Below are positions 43,445-49,733 of a stretch of DNA of 64,000 nucleotides, one piece after another (the first letter of the stretch is position 1; each line of letters opens with the position of its first letter). Source of the DNA: an uncultured Clostridia bacterium (GTDB lineage Bacteria > Bacillota > Clostridia > Christensenellales > CAG-314); the NCBI GenBank assembly GCA_947586855.1, contig CANPXV010000003.1:24274-88273 (forward strand), given 5' to 3'. The notes under the pieces are model-generated. The model did no database searches. It was not told the origin of the DNA and saw nothing but the letters and a program-made list of their open reading frames with translations. A program made the translations under genes and the position numbers.

Positions 43445-44128
43445 CTATTCCTTGCGCAAATGCACTTTCAGCTCAAGTATGGGCAGGCCGAGGCTGCGAA
43501 ATTTTGCCTCGTACTCCGTCACGATATTGTCGTCGGCGTCGGGCAGGTCGTAGCACACGTCCGTCACTTCAAAGCCGTTTTGCGCATAGCTTTCCAACGA
43601 CCATTCAAAAAAATCCCTGTTGTCCGTTTTCTGGCGTATCTCGCCGTCGTCCGTCAGCAGCGTCTTGTATTTTTCCAAAAAGTTTTTGCTTGTCAACCTG
43701 CGATTGGCGTAGGTTTTTTTGGGGAAGGGGCAGCTGAAATTGAGCGCAATACGGCTTATCGAGTGAGGGGGCAGGTATCTGTCCAGATTTTCCGCCCGCA
43801 CGTTGAGGAAGCGCAGATTGGGAAGGTGCAGCGGCAGTGCGTTTTCGCAAGCAACCACAATCACATTGGACAGTTTTTCCACCGCAACAAAGTTCAGCTC
43901 GGGGTGGCGTTGTGCGCTTTGGATAGCCCAGGCGCCCTTGCCGCAGCCGATTTCCAGCACAACGGGTTGCACCTCGTCAAATGCGTGGGCGATATCTATG
44001 CGATAGGCCAGCTTTTGCTGTTCGGTCAGGGTGTAGTAGCCGTCGCCTTCTCGTGCAAGCAGCAGCTCTCCGCACTGCGCAATGCGTTCTTCCAGATGTT
44101 TTTTGAGGCGCATGCGCATATCAGTCAA
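43445..44128 (-). CDS. trmB: tRNA (guanine46-N7)-methyltransferase
   Basis: VVLEIGCGKGAW (SAM motif I), NFVAVE, LNFSCPFPKK, TDN..FFEW - a typical TrmB layout. Confidence 0.85.
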   Translation of the reverse strand: MTDMRMRLKKHLEERIAQCGELLLAREGDGYYTLTEQQKLAYRIDIAHAFDEVQPVVLEIGCGKGAWAIQSAQRHPELNFVAVEKLSNVIVVACENALPLHLPNLRFLNVRAENLDRYLPPHSISRIALNFSCPFPKKTYANRRLTSKNFLEKYKTLLTDDGEIRQKTDNRDFFEWSLESYAQNGFEVTDVCYDLPDADDNIVTEYEAKFRSLGLPILELKVHLRKE

Positions 44129-46217
44129 GGCCCTCCAACTCTTGCAGCCACACGTCGGGGCAGGCGTCGGTGGGGATGCGCAGGCTCATCTTGGACAGGT
44201 CCACCGAGCCCAGCCGAACGCTGTCGGGGGTGCAGCTGCGCTTAAACTGCTGCGAAAAGAACCTTTTCACAAAAAATCTCAGCCATTTCAGGATGGTGGC
44301 GTCGTCGTATATACCCGCAAAGGAGCGTTTTGCCAGCTCAAACACCTTGCGCGCGCCAAAGCCCTTGCGCACGATCAAAAACAAAAAGTAGTCGTGCAGT
44401 TGATAGGGCCCCACGCTGTTTTCGGTGATCTGCGCAATGTTACCCTCGCTGTCGGTGGGCAGCAATTCGGGGCTGACGGGCGTTTCGATGATGTCGTGCA
44501 GCACCTTTTTCAGCGTCCCCTTGCTGTGATGTTCGCAGTGGGCCAGCAGCGTTTTTACCAACGTTTTGGGCACCGAGGCAATGGCGGCATACATGCTCAT
44601 CTGGTCGCCGTTGAAGGTGCTCCAACCCAGCGCCGCCTCGCTCATATCGCCCGTGCCCACAACCAGGCCATTTTCGGCATTGGCGATGTCCATCAGCACC
44701 TGCGTGCGCTCTCGGGCCTGGGCGTTTTCGTAGACGGTGTCGGGGGCAAAGTTGTGCCCGATGTCCTTCAAATGCTGCGTCACGGCGGCGGATATGTCGA
44801 TCTGGCGCACTTCGCAGCCCAATTCGCTCATCAGCGACAGGCTGTTGCCAAGGGTGCGCTTGCTTGTGCCAAAGCAGGGCATTGTCACCGCCACAATATC
44901 CTTGGCGCTGCGGTTGGATAGCTCCAACGCCCGTTTTGCCACCAGCAGTGCAAGGGTGCTGTCGCTGCCGCCCGATACGCCCAGCACCAGCTTTTTGGCG
45001 CCGATGTGGTCGATGCGCTTTTTCAGGCCAAAGCTGAGTATCGTCAATGCCCTTTCGCACACCTCGTCGGCGTTTTCGACGGGCACAAACGGGTTGGGAT
45101 CGTAGGTGCGGGCCACGCCTTTCAGCGGCAGGCAAAAGCTCACAACGTCGTAGCCATCGGGCGTGCGACCCTTGTCCAGACGGGCACGCTCGTTCCGGAT
45201 AAAGTCAAAGTCCGCCACGGCCTCGACATATCCGCTGCCAAAGGGTTGCGCCTCGGCCAGGCACTGTCCGTTTTCGCACACCATATTGTGCGCCGAAAAC
45301 ACCGTCGCCGAGGTGGATTCGCTTGGCCCCGACGAGCAATATGCGTAGATAACGCCGCACTTTGCCGACTGTATCTCTATCATTTTTTTGCGGTAGGCCG
45401 CCTTTACGATGGTCTCGTTGCTGCTGGACAGGTTAAGCACCGCATTGGCCCCCGCCGCCGCATGTCCCACCGATGGCGAATCGGCCACCCACACATCCTC
45501 GCACACCTCCACGGCAAAGCGCATTTCGCTGTGGAGGGCGTTGTCAAACAGCAGCCTCACGCCAAATGGCACCTGCTTGCCCAGCAGATAAACGGTGGTG
45601 TTGGGGCCGTCGTAGGGGCAAAAAAACCGCTTTTCCATAAACTCGTTGTAGTTGGGCAGATTTTTTTTGGGGATAACGCCCAGCACCTGCCCATGCAGCA
45701 GCACCGCAGCCACGTTGTACAGCCGCCCGTCGTTGCCGCACAGAGGCAGCCCCACAACAGTGATCACGTCCAGATCGGCCAAGGCCGCAGCGATGTCGCA
45801 GAGAGAAGTTACCGCCGCATTGCGCAAGCTGTCAGAGAAAAACAAATCGCCGCAGGTGTAGCCCGTCACGGATAGCTCCGGCAGCACGGCAATCTGCACG
45901 TTGTTTTGGGCGGCTTGGCGCACAGCCTCGACGATCTTTTTGGCGTTGAAGTCGCAATCGCCCACACGCACCTCGGGGCTGATGCAGGCAATGGCCACCA
46001 TGCCCAGGTAGGGTGCGTCGGTGCCCAGCAGCCACTGTTCCGATACGTCCAACGCCGCCGCCAGACGGCTCAGCTTGTCCGGACGGACGCTTTTCAGCTC
46101 TCCGCTCATGATTTTGTTGACGGTGCCCTGCGACAATCCGCTGCTCTCCGCCAGCTGTTTGAGGGTGCAGCCCTTTTGCCTTTTTGCTTCGTTAAGTTTT
46201 GCCACGATGTTTTGCAT
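44121..46217 (-). CDS. nadE: glutamine-dependent NAD+ synthetase with N-terminal XRE-type HTH domain
   Basis: Residues 1-65: HTH (CTLKQLAESSGLSQGTVNKIMSG). Then a CN-hydrolase domain (VLPELSVTGYTCGDLF). Then an NAD-synthase PP-loop (VLGVSGGSDSTLALLV). Confidence 0.85.
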   Translation of the reverse strand: MQNIVAKLNEAKRQKGCTLKQLAESSGLSQGTVNKIMSGELKSVRPDKLSRLAAALDVSEQWLLGTDAPYLGMVAIACISPEVRVGDCDFNAKKIVEAVRQAAQNNVQIAVLPELSVTGYTCGDLFFSDSLRNAAVTSLCDIAAALADLDVITVVGLPLCGNDGRLYNVAAVLLHGQVLGVIPKKNLPNYNEFMEKRFFCPYDGPNTTVYLLGKQVPFGVRLLFDNALHSEMRFAVEVCEDVWVADSPSVGHAAAGANAVLNLSSSNETIVKAAYRKKMIEIQSAKCGVIYAYCSSGPSESTSATVFSAHNMVCENGQCLAEAQPFGSGYVEAVADFDFIRNERARLDKGRTPDGYDVVSFCLPLKGVARTYDPNPFVPVENADEVCERALTILSFGLKKRIDHIGAKKLVLGVSGGSDSTLALLVAKRALELSNRSAKDIVAVTMPCFGTSKRTLGNSLSLMSELGCEVRQIDISAAVTQHLKDIGHNFAPDTVYENAQARERTQVLMDIANAENGLVVGTGDMSEAALGWSTFNGDQMSMYAAIASVPKTLVKTLLAHCEHHSKGTLKKVLHDIIETPVSPELLPTDSEGNIAQITENSVGPYQLHDYFLFLIVRKGFGARKVFELAKRSFAGIYDDATILKWLRFFVKRFFSQQFKRSCTPDSVRLGSVDLSKMSLRIPTDACPDVWLQELEGLD

Positions 46218-46656: not shown

Positions 46657-47256
46657 TTATTTTCTAAACACAAACAGGTACTCATGCGCAAGCAGAAGAA
46701 AATTAAACTTGATGCTGTTTGTTTTCCAATAGCCTGTTGCCTTGCAGTTGTGCTGTTCTTTTATGATAATCTCTTTTGTCTTGAACCCAGCAAGTTCGAA
46801 TACTCGCATGGTTTCAAATGCGAGAGGCTTGACCATACCTTTTTGCCTCGTATCGCCCATAAGGATAGCACAAAACTTATCCTTTTTCAATACCCGATAA
46901 CATTCCTCGGCAACTTTGCCCATTTCAAACAGGAACTCTTTCATTGGCAGGCGGGACAAGTCCCCGTCAATGTCCTCGCTGTAATGGATAATATCGGCAT
47001 ACGGTGGGTGAGTGCACACAAGGTCTATGCTTTCGTCCCCAAGCGGCAGCTTGCGTGCGTCCCCAACGGCAAGTGATGTGGTCGCCTGCGTGTCAAAATC
47101 AAACTCGCATTTTCTTTTCGACAGTTCAATTGCGTGTGGATTTATGTCAATGCCGACAAAATTCCTGTGCGTCAGCTTGGCCTCGACAGCAGTAGTGCCG
47201 CCTCCGACAAATTGATCCAACACGGTATCGCCCTCTTGGGTATAGCGCAAAATCAC
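46657..47256 (-). CDS. site-specific DNA methyltransferase (N6-A or N4-C); start codon problematic, possibly a pseudogene
   Basis: Motif I VLDQFVGGGTT, then motif IV THPPY, then HEYLFVFRK*. Conserved-looking sequence (THDAKYRGNWSPYIPRN) continues upstream of the first GTG up to an in-frame TAA. Confidence 0.6.
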   Translation of the reverse strand: MILRYTQEGDTVLDQFVGGGTTAVEAKLTHRNFVGIDINPHAIELSKRKCEFDFDTQATTSLAVGDARKLPLGDESIDLVCTHPPYADIIHYSEDIDGDLSRLPMKEFLFEMGKVAEECYRVLKKDKFCAILMGDTRQKGMVKPLAFETMRVFELAGFKTKEIIIKEQHNCKATGYWKTNSIKFNFLLLAHEYLFVFRK

Positions 47257-47319: not shown

Positions 47320-47514
47320 TTAAAATTCCATCCATTCGGTTGGTTCGTCTCCGACAGATGCCATTTGCCGAAACTGTACCTCGCCGGGTTCTAAAACAAA
47401 TTTACCTTTGCGATATTTTTCCTCGGCAATTTCAAGTGCTTGGACGCTATCATCTGCCATTACCTCAAATTCTTGTACAACTGTTTCTTCGATAGCAATA
47501 ATAAACTTTTTCAT
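47320..47514 (-). CDS. DpnD/PcfM-like small protein (64 aa)
   Basis: MKKFIIAIEETVVQEFEVMADDSVQALEIAEEKYRKGKFVLEPGEV fits the recalled DpnD/PcfM pattern. Sits directly downstream of the DpnI-like gene, as in the pneumococcal DpnI cassette. Confidence 0.55.
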   Translation of the reverse strand: MKKFIIAIEETVVQEFEVMADDSVQALEIAEEKYRKGKFVLEPGEVQFRQMASVGDEPTEWMEF

Positions 47515-47522
47515 TTCTCACC

Positions 47523-48293
47523 TCAATAGAGTTTTTTGTATTCTCCTCTCTGGGTAAATTGCAAAAATCCTTTGTCTCGCAAGTATTGCAATTGCTGTCG
47601 GATTTTAGGCTTCACGTTGTGATTGTTTGGATGTTTTGCCGACAATATCGCCTCGAAACGATAAATGTCATCAAGAGTAAATTCCTGCATTTGTATCTGG
47701 TTGACGCATTGAAGCACATCAAACAACCAACCGCGAGCCTCGATATTTGAAAGTTCCAAATTGGAGCTTCTGGACATTTGCGACAACACTATTCCTTTAT
47801 CTATGGCGCAGCCGTTCTCAACTATTTTGATAAAGCCCTGTTGCGGGACAGTGTGCAGCAATATGTTGCAACCCACCCAGCCTGCTCTGCGTGCACTTGC
47901 CGAAAGGGGCTTGCGTTTTTCAATCATAGACGGGACAAAAAAGTGTTTGGGAACAATAACAAGGTCTTTTACAACCATGGATTGCTTTTGGTAACTCATA
48001 AACAGAAAATCAGGGTTGCGGTTGCTTGTTATTCGTGCAATCATTGTTTCGTAAGCACCGTCATTTATTTTCTCGCCCAATTTTCCGCCTTTACTTTTCA
48101 GTTCAAATTCGTTTTTACAATGCTCGCAGTAGAAGTCGGCCACAGGACGGTTGTTTTGAAAATGCAATATTTTTTCATTGCCGCAACGTGGGCAATACAG
48201 ATTTTCTCCCACCCAAGTCTCTGTCAATAGACGTGCTCGTTGTGTTTCGCTGTGATAAACGTCAATTCCATCAAAGTGCATTTGTAAATCCAT
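47523..48293 (-). CDS. dpnC: DpnI-like type IIM methyl-directed restriction endonuclease (cuts G6mATC)
   Basis: Collinear with the recalled S. pneumoniae DpnI sequence: YCPRCGN...FQNNRPVADFYCEHCKNEFELKSK, INDGAYETM, RKPLSASARRAGWVGCNI, C-terminal winged helix IRQQLQYLRDKGF. Confidence 0.85.
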   Translation of the reverse strand: MDLQMHFDGIDVYHSETQRARLLTETWVGENLYCPRCGNEKILHFQNNRPVADFYCEHCKNEFELKSKGGKLGEKINDGAYETMIARITSNRNPDFLFMSYQKQSMVVKDLVIVPKHFFVPSMIEKRKPLSASARRAGWVGCNILLHTVPQQGFIKIVENGCAIDKGIVLSQMSRSSNLELSNIEARGWLFDVLQCVNQIQMQEFTLDDIYRFEAILSAKHPNNHNVKPKIRQQLQYLRDKGFLQFTQRGEYKKLY

Positions 48294-49236
48294 AAGTTTT
48301 CAACTCCTTGTTGCATTTTGTCAAAACAATCTTTGCCCCTGTTGCATCGATGTCGTCTATAAACTTGGAAAGCCTGATTTGCTCGCTGTCATCGAAGGCA
48401 TCGGCATTGTAGGACGTGAAAGCCGAAGTTTCGGAAATGGGGCGATAAGGCGGATCGAGATATACAAAAGTATTCTTGTCGATGAACTCTTTCGATAAGG
48501 AATAGTCGCCGCAAACGATAGTAACGTTTTGCAAAACTTTGCTGATATTAAGCAAGTTTTCCTCGTCGCAAATCGTCGGATTTTTGTATGCGCCCATTGG
48601 GACGTTGAATTGTCCTTTGCGGTTTACCCGATACAGTCCGTTGAAGCAAGTCTTGTTGAGGAAGATAAAATAAGCCGCTTTTTCGACCGCTGTTTCGTCT
48701 GTCAATACCACGGAATTGAATTTATCACGGATGGAATAGTAGTAAAACTTTCTGCCGTTTTCGTCCATTGGCAAAAATACCATTTGCATTTCTTTGAGGC
48801 GCACAATCAGCCTCTCAACATCCTTTTTGATAACGTTGTACGCATTGATAAGCTCGGCATTTATGTCCCCAATATACAGTTCGGCAAAATCATACTTCGA
48901 CAGTACGTTGAAGAGTAGTGCGCCGCCGCCCACCATAGGTTCACAATACTTTGTAAGAACCCTTTCGCCGCCCGAGGGCAGCATCTTTTCAAGCTCGTCG
49001 ATGAGTTGTCCCTTGCCGCCCACCCATTTGACAAACGGTTTCAACGTGATTTGATGTTCCTTTTCGTAACGAACGGTTCTCTTGTCTATGGGCTTTTCGG
49101 CGTCGCTTGGGATAATCCACATATTTCCGACCATCATAGCGCCGTCAATCCTGTTTTCGGCACAGAGAATTGCCACACGCCGTTGCGAAATGTTCCACTT
49201 TTCGGCGGCTTCTTTTGCCGACATATAACTCAACAT
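48271..49236 (-). CDS. Dam-type (D12-class) N6-adenine DNA methyltransferase with N-terminal HTH; apparently C-terminally truncated
   Basis: HTH_17-like N-terminus. FVKWVGGKGQL, EPMVGGGALLF, CFNGLYRVNRKGQFNVP, VYLDPPY. Ends 17 aa after the GAKIVL strand, whereas Dam/DpnM have about 45-50 more aa. The 3' end overlaps the dpnI start. Confidence 0.7.
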   Translation of the reverse strand: MLSYMSAKEAAEKWNISQRRVAILCAENRIDGAMMVGNMWIIPSDAEKPIDKRTVRYEKEHQITLKPFVKWVGGKGQLIDELEKMLPSGGERVLTKYCEPMVGGGALLFNVLSKYDFAELYIGDINAELINAYNVIKKDVERLIVRLKEMQMVFLPMDENGRKFYYYSIRDKFNSVVLTDETAVEKAAYFIFLNKTCFNGLYRVNRKGQFNVPMGAYKNPTICDEENLLNISKVLQNVTIVCGDYSLSKEFIDKNTFVYLDPPYRPISETSAFTSYNADAFDDSEQIRLSKFIDDIDATGAKIVLTKCNKELKTYGFTNAL

Positions 49237-49261
49237 AAAGCACCTCACTTTTGATGTCTAT

Positions 49262-49290
49262 ATTATATTCCAACTCTCGAACAAAAGCAA
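49262..49290 (-). promoter_or_regulatory. promoter of the island operon
   Basis: On the - strand: TTGCTT (49290-49285), 17-nt spacer, TATAAT (49267-49262). Confidence 0.5.
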
Positions 49291-49413
49291 GCATTTTCTT
49301 GTTGAAGTCCGATCTTATTTCCCAAAGCAAGTGCTATCCGCAGAGGCGTTGGGTTTGTCTCCCCGCAGGGGAGTAAGGGGAGCAACACAATGTGTTGCGT
49401 AGCGCTACTTCGT

Positions 49414-49433
49414 CGCCGCACGCCCTTGGTCAA
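49414..49433 (+). repeat. right copy of 20-nt direct repeat flanking the island
   Basis: cgccgcacgcccttggtcaa. See 46544-46563. Confidence 0.5.
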
Positions 49434-49592
49434 CACCAACCTCGCAAGCTCGGTTGGTTCCGTTGACGGTCGGCGGCTCCTCTCCCACAAAAGTTTCGCA
49501 AGCTCGACTTTTGCGGGTGCCCGTGGGGCGTCTCGTTATAGAAACACGCCCAAGAAGTGGGGCGAGCGACAGGGCGGCAAACAAAAGCGAGC

Positions 49593-49626
49593 AATAGAAA
49601 AGGGGTGCACCTGGTGTGTACCCCTT
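49593..49626 (-). terminator. intrinsic terminator after tRNA-Asn
   Basis: On the - strand: GGGGTACAC-acc-aGGTGCACCCC-type hairpin followed by TTTTCT. Confidence 0.6.
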
Positions 49627-49658
49627 TCTGTTGCGACCACAAGTGCAGCCGCCCACAA

Positions 49659-49733
49659 TGGCTCCCCGTGTTGGGTTTGAACCAACGACCCTCCGGTTAA
49701 CAGCCGGATGCTCTGCCGCTGAGCTAACGAGGA
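49659..49733 (-). tRNA. tRNA-Asn (anticodon GTT), CCA encoded
   Basis: Manual fold: acceptor TCCTCGT/ACGGGGA, D-arm AGCTCAGCGGCAGAGC, anticodon stem TCCGG/CCGGA with loop CTGTTAA, T-arm GGTTCAAACCC, discriminator G plus CCA. Confidence 0.9.

Follow-up and report, generated by a model that had tools for sequence, protein, structure and literature searches.

Mutually exclusive DpnI and DpnII restriction cassettes in Streptococcus pneumoniae were reportedly described by Lacks et al. in 1986. In the DpnI and DpnII (and DpnIII) cassettes of this species (PMC3573125, PMC3812788, PMC4471560), the Dam-type methylase(s) and the DpnII endonuclease stand against the methyl-dependent endonuclease DpnI and its companion DpnD; the DpnII system contains a second methylase, and the cassettes are exchanged by homologous recombination in shared flanks. 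In Neisseria, the dam-replacing gene drg, encoding a DpnI-family Gm6ATC endonuclease (PF06044, whose Pfam name is drg), supplants dam and sits within it, "resulting in dam truncation", in N. meningitidis MC58, 053442, Z2491 and alpha710 (PMC4269198), where a truncated dam remains. Control of restriction-modification (R-M) operons by helix-turn-helix (HTH) proteins is also documented, either by methyltransferases bearing an N-terminal HTH and acting on the operon that encodes them, such as M.SsoII and M.Ecl18kI (PMC3978073, PMC3695355), or by separate controller (C) proteins (PMC2175313). Here we describe a four-gene locus on the minus strand of a 64,000-nt stretch, referred to as the window, of the genome of an uncultured Clostridia bacterium (contig CANPXV010000003.1). 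This locus, consisting of an HTH-Dam remnant, dpnI, dpnD and a remnant of a second methylase (MT2), is a variant of the pneumococcal and neisserial either-or switch, derived from a putatively HTH-controlled methylase-endonuclease-methylase parent; both methylases are clipped here and serve as flanks.

The locus descends from a mobile DpnII-type GATC R-M operon in which the central ~1.1 kb has been swapped for a ~1.0-kb DpnI-DpnD segment. A preliminary description, made from the nucleotide sequence, had proposed that a DpnI-type cassette was swapped into a DpnII/Dam-type locus, and this proposal is supported by comparative loci whose flanks are 88-89% identical at the nucleotide level. Contigs with a full-length Dam of 355 aa (P0005) carry the HTH-Dam gene followed by a 287-aa DpnII endonuclease (PF04556) and a 246-aa MT2; in contigs with a Dam of 320/321 aa, the genes are Dam, DpnI, DpnD and an MT2 of reduced length, and DpnI follows Dam in all six of the other truncated alleles looked up (P0014, P0003, P0011, P0002, P0111 and P0085). 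When the minus strand of the window is compared by blastn with a DpnII-type reference locus (L004), two blocks are obtained: window 49305-48323 corresponds to L004 5932-6914 with 89% nucleotide identity, from 69 nt 5' of dam to codon ~305, and window 47310-46649 corresponds to L004 8033-8694 with 88% identity, from codon ~30 of MT2 to just past its stop. Between the blocks lie ~1012 bp with DpnI and DpnD in the window versus 1118 bp in L004, and the replaced stretch of L004 comprises the last ~154 nt of dam, dpnII in its entirety and MT2 up to its 87th nt. When the junctions of eight DpnI-type and five DpnII-type loci were compared at the nucleotide level, the left junction of each of the eight DpnI-type loci, all of which retain the methylase domain, came within ~10 nt of dam codon 305-309, and the right junction (THDAKY...) is the same in locus L121 and genome G044. 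The features of the locus, in window positions, are the following.

49262-49290, minus strand: putative operon promoter, TTGCTT (49290-49285), 17-nt spacer, TATAAT (49267-49262)
48271-49236, minus strand: HTH-Dam remnant gene, 321 aa, ATG start, beginning MLSYM
48322-48323, minus strand: left junction, where dam homology ends (codon ~305) and cassette sequence begins
48304-48309, minus strand: ribosome-binding site (RBS) of dpnI, AAGGAG, within the Dam tail, 10 nt 5' of the DpnI ATG
47523-48293, minus strand: dpnI, 256 aa, full length, DpnI-family type IIM endonuclease
47320-47514, minus strand: dpnD, 64 aa, DpnD/PcfM-like, PF14207
46657-47319, minus strand: MT2 remnant, circularly permuted N6_N4-type methyltransferase, PF01555
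46544-46569, no strand: left direct repeat, 26 nt, 85% identical to the right copy
49414-49439, no strand: right direct repeat, 26 nt, within a genus-dispersed repeat, beside tRNA-Asn

The Dam stop codon (TGA, 48273-48271) lies beyond the DpnI start codon (ATG, 48293-48291), and the coordinates thus confirm the 23-nt overlap of the two open reading frames (ORFs) noticed in the preliminary description, together with the AAGGAG inside the Dam tail; an alternative upstream GTG at 49248 would extend Dam to 325 aa. The RBS element AAGGAGTT(G/A)AA...TATGGATTT is common to all five loci of the window group in the comparison of junctions, and no minus-strand terminator between the genes was found by a consensus terminator scan.

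The upstream gene is, judging from its profile matches, a member of the D12/Dam family by descent and incomplete as an enzyme. It matches PF02086 (MethyltransfD12) in Pfam with an E-value of 1.1e-57 and 196 bits (cut-off 22), with coverage confined to profile positions 1-227 of 253, and the NCBIfam model TIGR00571 ("dam") with 269 bits (cut-off 115) over positions 2-230 of 267, in agreement with the earlier assignment to a Dam-type gene with motifs through DPPY. The S-adenosylmethionine-binding motif I, EPMVGGGA (FxGxG type), and the catalytic motif IV, DPPY, are both found, without variation between alleles, and the DpnM structure 2DPM aligns over its residues 7-243 of 284, leaving ~41 DpnM residues without a counterpart. 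Close Dam homologues retrieved by protein search fall into two length classes, a majority of 355 aa and a minority of 320/321 aa, the latter 77-93% identical to the window protein and forming at least 12 distinct 90%-identity clusters. Both classes are collinear up to residue 305 (...GAKIVL), after which the 355-aa forms continue with SNSDPKNVN...RVSA.R.INS....RGKINELLI.N; in the 320/321-aa forms a tail of 16 aa follows instead, for example RKxNKELKTYGFTNxx. In the window protein, 16 unrelated, non-Dam residues (TKCNKELKTYGFTNAL) replace the last 50 codons, and the conserved C-terminal segment SNSDP...R.INS....RG.I.EL is absent; the loss of 45-50 aa, estimated in the preliminary description by reference to E. 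coli Dam and DpnM, therefore amounts to 50 aa relative to the 355-aa orthologues. Among 19 full-length homologues, 23 of these last 50 positions are invariant. In an AlphaFold2 (AF2) model of a 355-aa orthologue (mean predicted local distance difference test, pLDDT, 77), the core strands occupy residues 96-99, 119-122, 239-242, 256-260, 302-308, 328-335 and 347-354, and a cut at 305 would remove the end of beta-5, one helix, beta-6 (328-335) and beta-7 (347-354). Because the missing segment holds 23 invariant residues and, in the model, two core beta-strands, the truncated Dam is probably catalytically dead.

The second truncated arm, not noticed in the preliminary description, is the methylase downstream of dpnD. 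This remnant (PF01555, 6.2e-24) matches residues 28-246 of the L004 MT2 (246 aa) with 93% identity and is of the permuted type, with the FxGxG motif preceding the (D/N/S/T)PPY motif. It lacks the first ~30 codons and follows in frame directly behind the dpnD stop (TAA, then SRRATHDAKYRGNW...); translation of the window gave no ATG, GTG or TTG before a GTG at 47256, and no Shine-Dalgarno sequence. MT2 would not be translated as a functional enzyme.

The endonuclease, by contrast with both methylase fragments, is complete. It matches PF06044 (2.5e-74, profile positions 1-181 of 183) and PF17726 (DpnI_C; 5.4e-33, 1-70 of 70), so that both the catalytic PD-(D/E)XK domain and the C-terminal winged helix are full length, and it aligns with S. 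pneumoniae R.DpnI (4ESJ) over residues 1-255 (E=1.5e-80). With residue roles mapped from the solved enzyme (4ESJ/4KYW; PMC4117772), the catalytic residues D53, E64 and K66, the base readers N48, R126, R135, Q18 and D78, of which R126, R135 and N48 read the guanine (PMC4117772), and the methyl cleft formed by L129, R135 and W138 with G140 are all identical to 4ESJ, and the CxxC...CxxC residues are conserved; S17->T is the sole difference noted at the residues checked. Its predicted specificity is for G(m6A)TC. The end-to-end match to the DpnI family models bears out the DpnI-like endonuclease of the preliminary description, whose alternative, a methylase or a nuclease of another specificity, does not agree with these residues or with the GATC-type score of Dam on TIGR00571. 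The dpnD product (PF14207, 2.7e-07, 30.9 bits, cut-off 25) is a companion of DpnI cassettes, and its gene follows DpnI in L008, L121, L122, L124 and L031. The pairing of Dam and DpnI, which would be self-destructive if both were active, would not be so here, since Dam is the cut-off remnant of a replaced DpnII operon.

The distribution of the genes points in the same direction. In a scan of 82 species genomes of the family, this Dam was found in 19, DpnII in 10 and DpnI in four (G000, which is the source genome of the window, G044, G047 and G066). DpnI and DpnII occurred together in none of the 82, and a full-length Dam accompanied DpnI neither in these genomes nor in more than 100 loci. G000 has a single DpnI gene and two D12 genes, and lacks DpnII. 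The 80 metagenome loci are mostly of the DpnII type, and a DpnI-based search of genome contigs returned only three distant loci, none with a Dam remnant. The truncated Dam/DpnI arrangement is old and spread over several lineages of gut Clostridia.

The second D12 gene of G000, 3 kb outside the window, was considered as a Dam that would conflict with DpnI and was rejected, as it is part of an IceA/NlaIII-like system. This second R-M system (L002; contig C3:19767-23660, ~2-4 kb before the start of the window) has three genes, encoding a 344-aa D12 methylase (MNYIGSK...) that scores 21 bits on the dam model TIGR00571 (cut-off 115), a permuted N6_N4 methylase of 272 aa that is an MT2 homologue, and, in convergent orientation, an ICEA ORF whose nuclease product matches PF05315 (ICEA/NlaIII-like) at 5e-59. 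IceA, the NlaIII-like nuclease family, has CATG specificity, and L002, with its two methylases, is probably a system of the CATG type. A further N6_N4 methylase, the third, on contig C28:7019-8467 (L136:1520-2968), has DPPYNTGK near the N-terminus and FAGSGTT near the C-terminus, a divergent XRE-type HTH gene 5' of it, and is cut by the contig end; from its motif layout, assessed by eye, it looks like a Type III Mod. Hence, as far as gene content can tell, no competing GATC methylase is evident in G000.

Upstream of the coding part, promoter and HTH are shared by both types of operon. A box, CTTGCT(A/T)TT(A/G)TTCGnGnTTTnGAATATAAT, precedes dam in all 25 aligned loci, DpnI-type and DpnII-type, G047 included, and the sequence further 5' is unrelated between loci. 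Its conserved spacer, TTGTTCGAGAGTTGGAA, includes an imperfect dyad resembling ATTC-N8-GAAT, which is a candidate for the operator of the HTH, and the promoter box CTTGCTnTTnTTCGnGnTTTnGAATATAAT, with a -35-like hexamer, a 17-nt dyad-containing spacer and TATAAT, recurs in L137 and L140. A consensus promoter scan did not call this conserved dam promoter, because its -35 matches at only three of six positions. The putative N-terminal HTH of Dam (~residues 5-50) reaches 19.4 bits on HTH_17, below the Pfam cut-off of 27; in the AF2 model, residues 4-43 form a helix-helix-strand-strand unit, with block-mean pLDDT of 84-87 over residues 1-50, and stand-alone homologues of the HTH carry source names denoting DNA-binding or HTH proteins. 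In other lineages (L137-L139, L141-L143), a separate 62-64-aa HTH gene overlaps the beginning of a Dam gene of 292-297 aa, and DpnII and MT2 come next; one of these sets adjoins a Mob_Pre relaxase and another a DDE transposase. G047 has a 62-aa HTH-only remnant directly 5' of DpnI, plus an MT2 remnant, and in L140 the HTH is again all that is left of HTH-Dam, with a DpnD-like gene, DpnI and an MT2 remnant behind it. Promoter and HTH are thus retained in every DpnI architecture, even without the methylase domain. By analogy with M.SsoII (PMC3978073) and the C proteins (PMC2175313), the HTH may autoregulate the operon and now control dpnI.

With regard to mobility, the module is flanked in the window by the two copies of the 26-nt direct repeat and sits between nadE and tRNA-Asn (49659-49733), and in relatives of the genus nadE adjoins tRNA-Asn without a module, while DpnII-type modules of sister species are on other contigs. 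From the module-free nadE/tRNA-Asn arrangement and the modules elsewhere it can be deduced that the whole R-M module moves as a unit and that the cassettes are exchanged inside it. The neighbouring NadE (NAD synthetase; window 44121-46217) carries an N-terminal XRE-type HTH and is conserved in congeners beside tRNA-Asn. Window 49351-49654, between the island and tRNA-Asn, belongs to a repeat family of ~150 bp with copies on contigs C1, C8, C11, C26 and C28 of G000 and in many congeners, and it contains the right copy of the direct repeat.

Compared with the described systems, the locus combines features of several. As in the pneumococcus, alternative DpnI-DpnD and DpnII inserts lie between shared arms, here 88-89% identical in nucleotides; however, the pneumococcal cassettes substitute whole genes between conserved flanks on the chromosome, whereas the breakpoints here are inside both methylase genes, which leaves the 5' part of dam and the 3' part of MT2 as the flanks in common. 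The gene order also differs (M1-R-M2 versus M-M-R), as do the N-terminal HTH of Dam and the location of the module at different chromosomal sites in different species. The truncated dam recalls Neisseria, but there dam is at the leuS locus and a cognate endonuclease is not discussed (PMC4269198), whereas the operon here includes DpnII and a second methylase; the same paper mentions no HTH, dpnD or second truncated methylase, and the phylum is different too. The parental operon resembles the three-gene GATC systems DpnII, MboI and LlaDCHI in having a D12 alpha-class Dam-like methylase, a PF04556 endonuclease and a second N6-adenine methylase, from which it differs in the circular permutation of the latter and, in the window, in the loss of the endonuclease. 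The putative ~60-aa N-terminal HTH ahead of the methylase domain and the dyad-like box in the promoter are reminiscent of M.SsoII, and the separate small HTH gene heading the operon in other lineages is reminiscent of C proteins; nevertheless, M.SsoII and M.Ecl18kI, unlike this Dam, are C5-cytosine methylases with divergent promoters, and the HTH here is below the Pfam cut-off, its regulatory role being putative.

Taken together, we consider it likely that DpnI-DpnD replaced the core of a DpnII operon, leaving a dead Dam and a live DpnI under the old dam promoter. With Dam dead and MT2 not functionally translated, the chromosome would be unmethylated at GATC, and DpnI, with its transcription starting at the former dam promoter and its translation coupled to that of the dam remnant, would cut incoming Dam-methylated DNA. 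With less certainty, the 5' part of dam may survive as promoter carrier, HTH autoregulator and leader ORF of dpnI, and the arms may be kept "fresh" through homologous recombination with full-length DpnII-type alleles, the same recombination allowing DpnI and DpnII cassettes to replace each other. Some observations weigh against this explanation: the truncated Dam lacks signs of decay in dN/dS (nonsynonymous to synonymous rate ratio) and at invariant positions, which would also fit a retained protein function, and the dN/dS of the MT2 remnant is equally low; the HTH matches Pfam only below cut-off and its operator is a conserved box of candidate status; and the modules are at different chromosomal sites in different species, no same-species pair with both cassettes having been found. 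The chance that the junction is an assembly chimera is negligible and this was rejected: although the genome is a metagenome-assembled genome of 36 contigs (1.47 Mb, 92.9% complete), the Dam(305)/DpnI junction recurs, collinear and with 78-90% nucleotide identity, in at least seven independent assemblies from different samples. It is also very improbable that the truncated Dam still methylates GATC and that the DpnI homologue is inactive or of another specificity; the motifs through DPPY are all intact, as such an enzyme would need, but the 50 lost C-terminal residues include 23 invariant ones and beta-6 and beta-7, DpnI keeps all the catalytic and Gm6ATC-reading residues of 4ESJ/4KYW, and full-length Dam accompanies DpnI in none of the 82 genomes or the more than 100 loci.

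The remaining alternatives concern what the dam remnant now is. Pairwise dN/dS (NG86) is 0.04-0.10 for the truncated Dam alleles and 0.03-0.07 for the full-length ones, and at 105 positions invariant in 78 full-length alleles the truncated alleles have 0-2 conservative changes, the leave-one-out mean of the full-length alleles being 0.32. Since the MT2 remnant, for which the window offers no start codon, likewise shows 0.04-0.10 and keeps its catalytic motifs, low dN/dS is no proof of function and was rejected as such for the Dam remnant; the values fit repeated replacement of the arms by sequence from functional DpnII-type alleles. On trees that are themselves affected by recombination, the approximately unbiased (AU) test rejected a single clade of DpnI-linked dam remnants (log-likelihood difference 205, p=2.5e-5) and, for the five alleles of the window group by themselves, did not reject a clade (p=0.078). 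Synonymous divergence is mosaic along the dam arm, with tracts common to DpnI-type and DpnII-type alleles, and it is higher for DpnI than for the dam arm in 18 of the 28 allele pairs, among them all ten from the window group (there, proportion of synonymous differences, pS, 0.62-0.88 for DpnI versus 0.34-0.61 for the dam arm). Cassette-linked substitutions in the dam arm were sought and rejected, the candidates mirroring clade membership only, and a rise in divergence toward the junction is a weak hint only, in L008 and L122. All of this (the start-less MT2 remnant as conserved as dam, the polyphyly of the remnants, the mosaic arms, their lower divergence than DpnI in most pairs and the lack of cassette-specific substitutions seen) would suit a plain pseudogene whose intact look comes from cassette transfer and gene conversion out of functional DpnII-type alleles, a possibility to which we give some, clearly minor, weight. 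It is opposed by the undisrupted state of the dam remnant in 10 of 10 alleles (eight DpnI-type and two "type E") versus further deletions or an insertion in three of ~7 MT2 remnants (L008, L122 and L031), an asymmetry that points to constraint on the upstream part; by the retention of promoter and HTH in each independent DpnI architecture, whether or not the methylase domain is deleted; and by the position of dpnI, which begins inside or right behind the remnant ORF. Conversely, HTH-Dam could be a domesticated dead DNA-binding protein under full-length purifying selection, acting as a repressor of dpnI or as a GATC-binding partner of DpnI, which we hold to be unlikely. The low dN/dS over both HTH and methylase domain, the at most two changes at invariant positions, the at least 12 clusters of 320/321-aa proteins, the precedent of M.SsoII, a methylase doubling as repressor through its N-terminal HTH (PMC3978073), and the binding of EcoDam to non-GATC promoter DNA (PMC4417163) speak for it; the MT2 control shows, however, that low dN/dS arises without translation, the methylase domain is dispensable given that two independent architectures (G047 and L140) drop it and retain the HTH, and a fold without two of its seven core strands may, to judge from the model, be unstable. 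The wider idea that HTH-Dam is a long-lived dead methyltransferase domesticated as a regulator or GATC-binding partner of DpnI and maintained by purifying selection in many lineages of gut Clostridia, and that both methylase fragments are at the same time built-in arms for cassette flipping within a mobile R-M island, seems to us doubtful as a whole.

The slot between Dam and MT2 is variable beyond DpnI and DpnII, and in some loci also holds extra Mrr-like or NucS-like genes. A 176-182-aa PD-(D/E)XK protein (PF20472, 1.4e-5), with full-length Dam and MT2 around it, is encoded at L061:4079-4618, L055:1287-1835 and L047:2858-3388; this type of protein replaces DpnII in some loci and stands beside DpnII in others, and is a candidate for an alternative GATC endonuclease. 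At L052:1212-2132 and L107:4047-4961, a 236-aa REase_II-like protein (PADLOC 1.3e-8), with a weak HARE-HTH and no PDB match, is accompanied by a 66-aa DpnD-like gene; in both loci Dam is truncated at ~320-333 and MT2 is N-terminally truncated, without 40 residues, and the 236-aa protein is possibly another methyl-directed nuclease replacing DpnII.

These findings extend the Dam-or-DpnI switch beyond pneumococci and Neisseria to uncultured gut Clostridia, where it takes the form of a core replacement in a mobile three-gene operon, with promoter and putative HTH regulator kept. In genome annotation, "Dam" proteins of 320/321 aa should not be read as evidence of GATC methylation, and the variable central slot, with its 179-aa PD-(D/E)XK protein and its 236-aa REase-like protein and DpnD-like partner, is a place to seek new restriction enzymes. 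The switch predicts an alternation, at the level of strains or species, between GATC-methylated populations and populations that restrict GATC-methylated DNA, which would bear on phage-host ecology.

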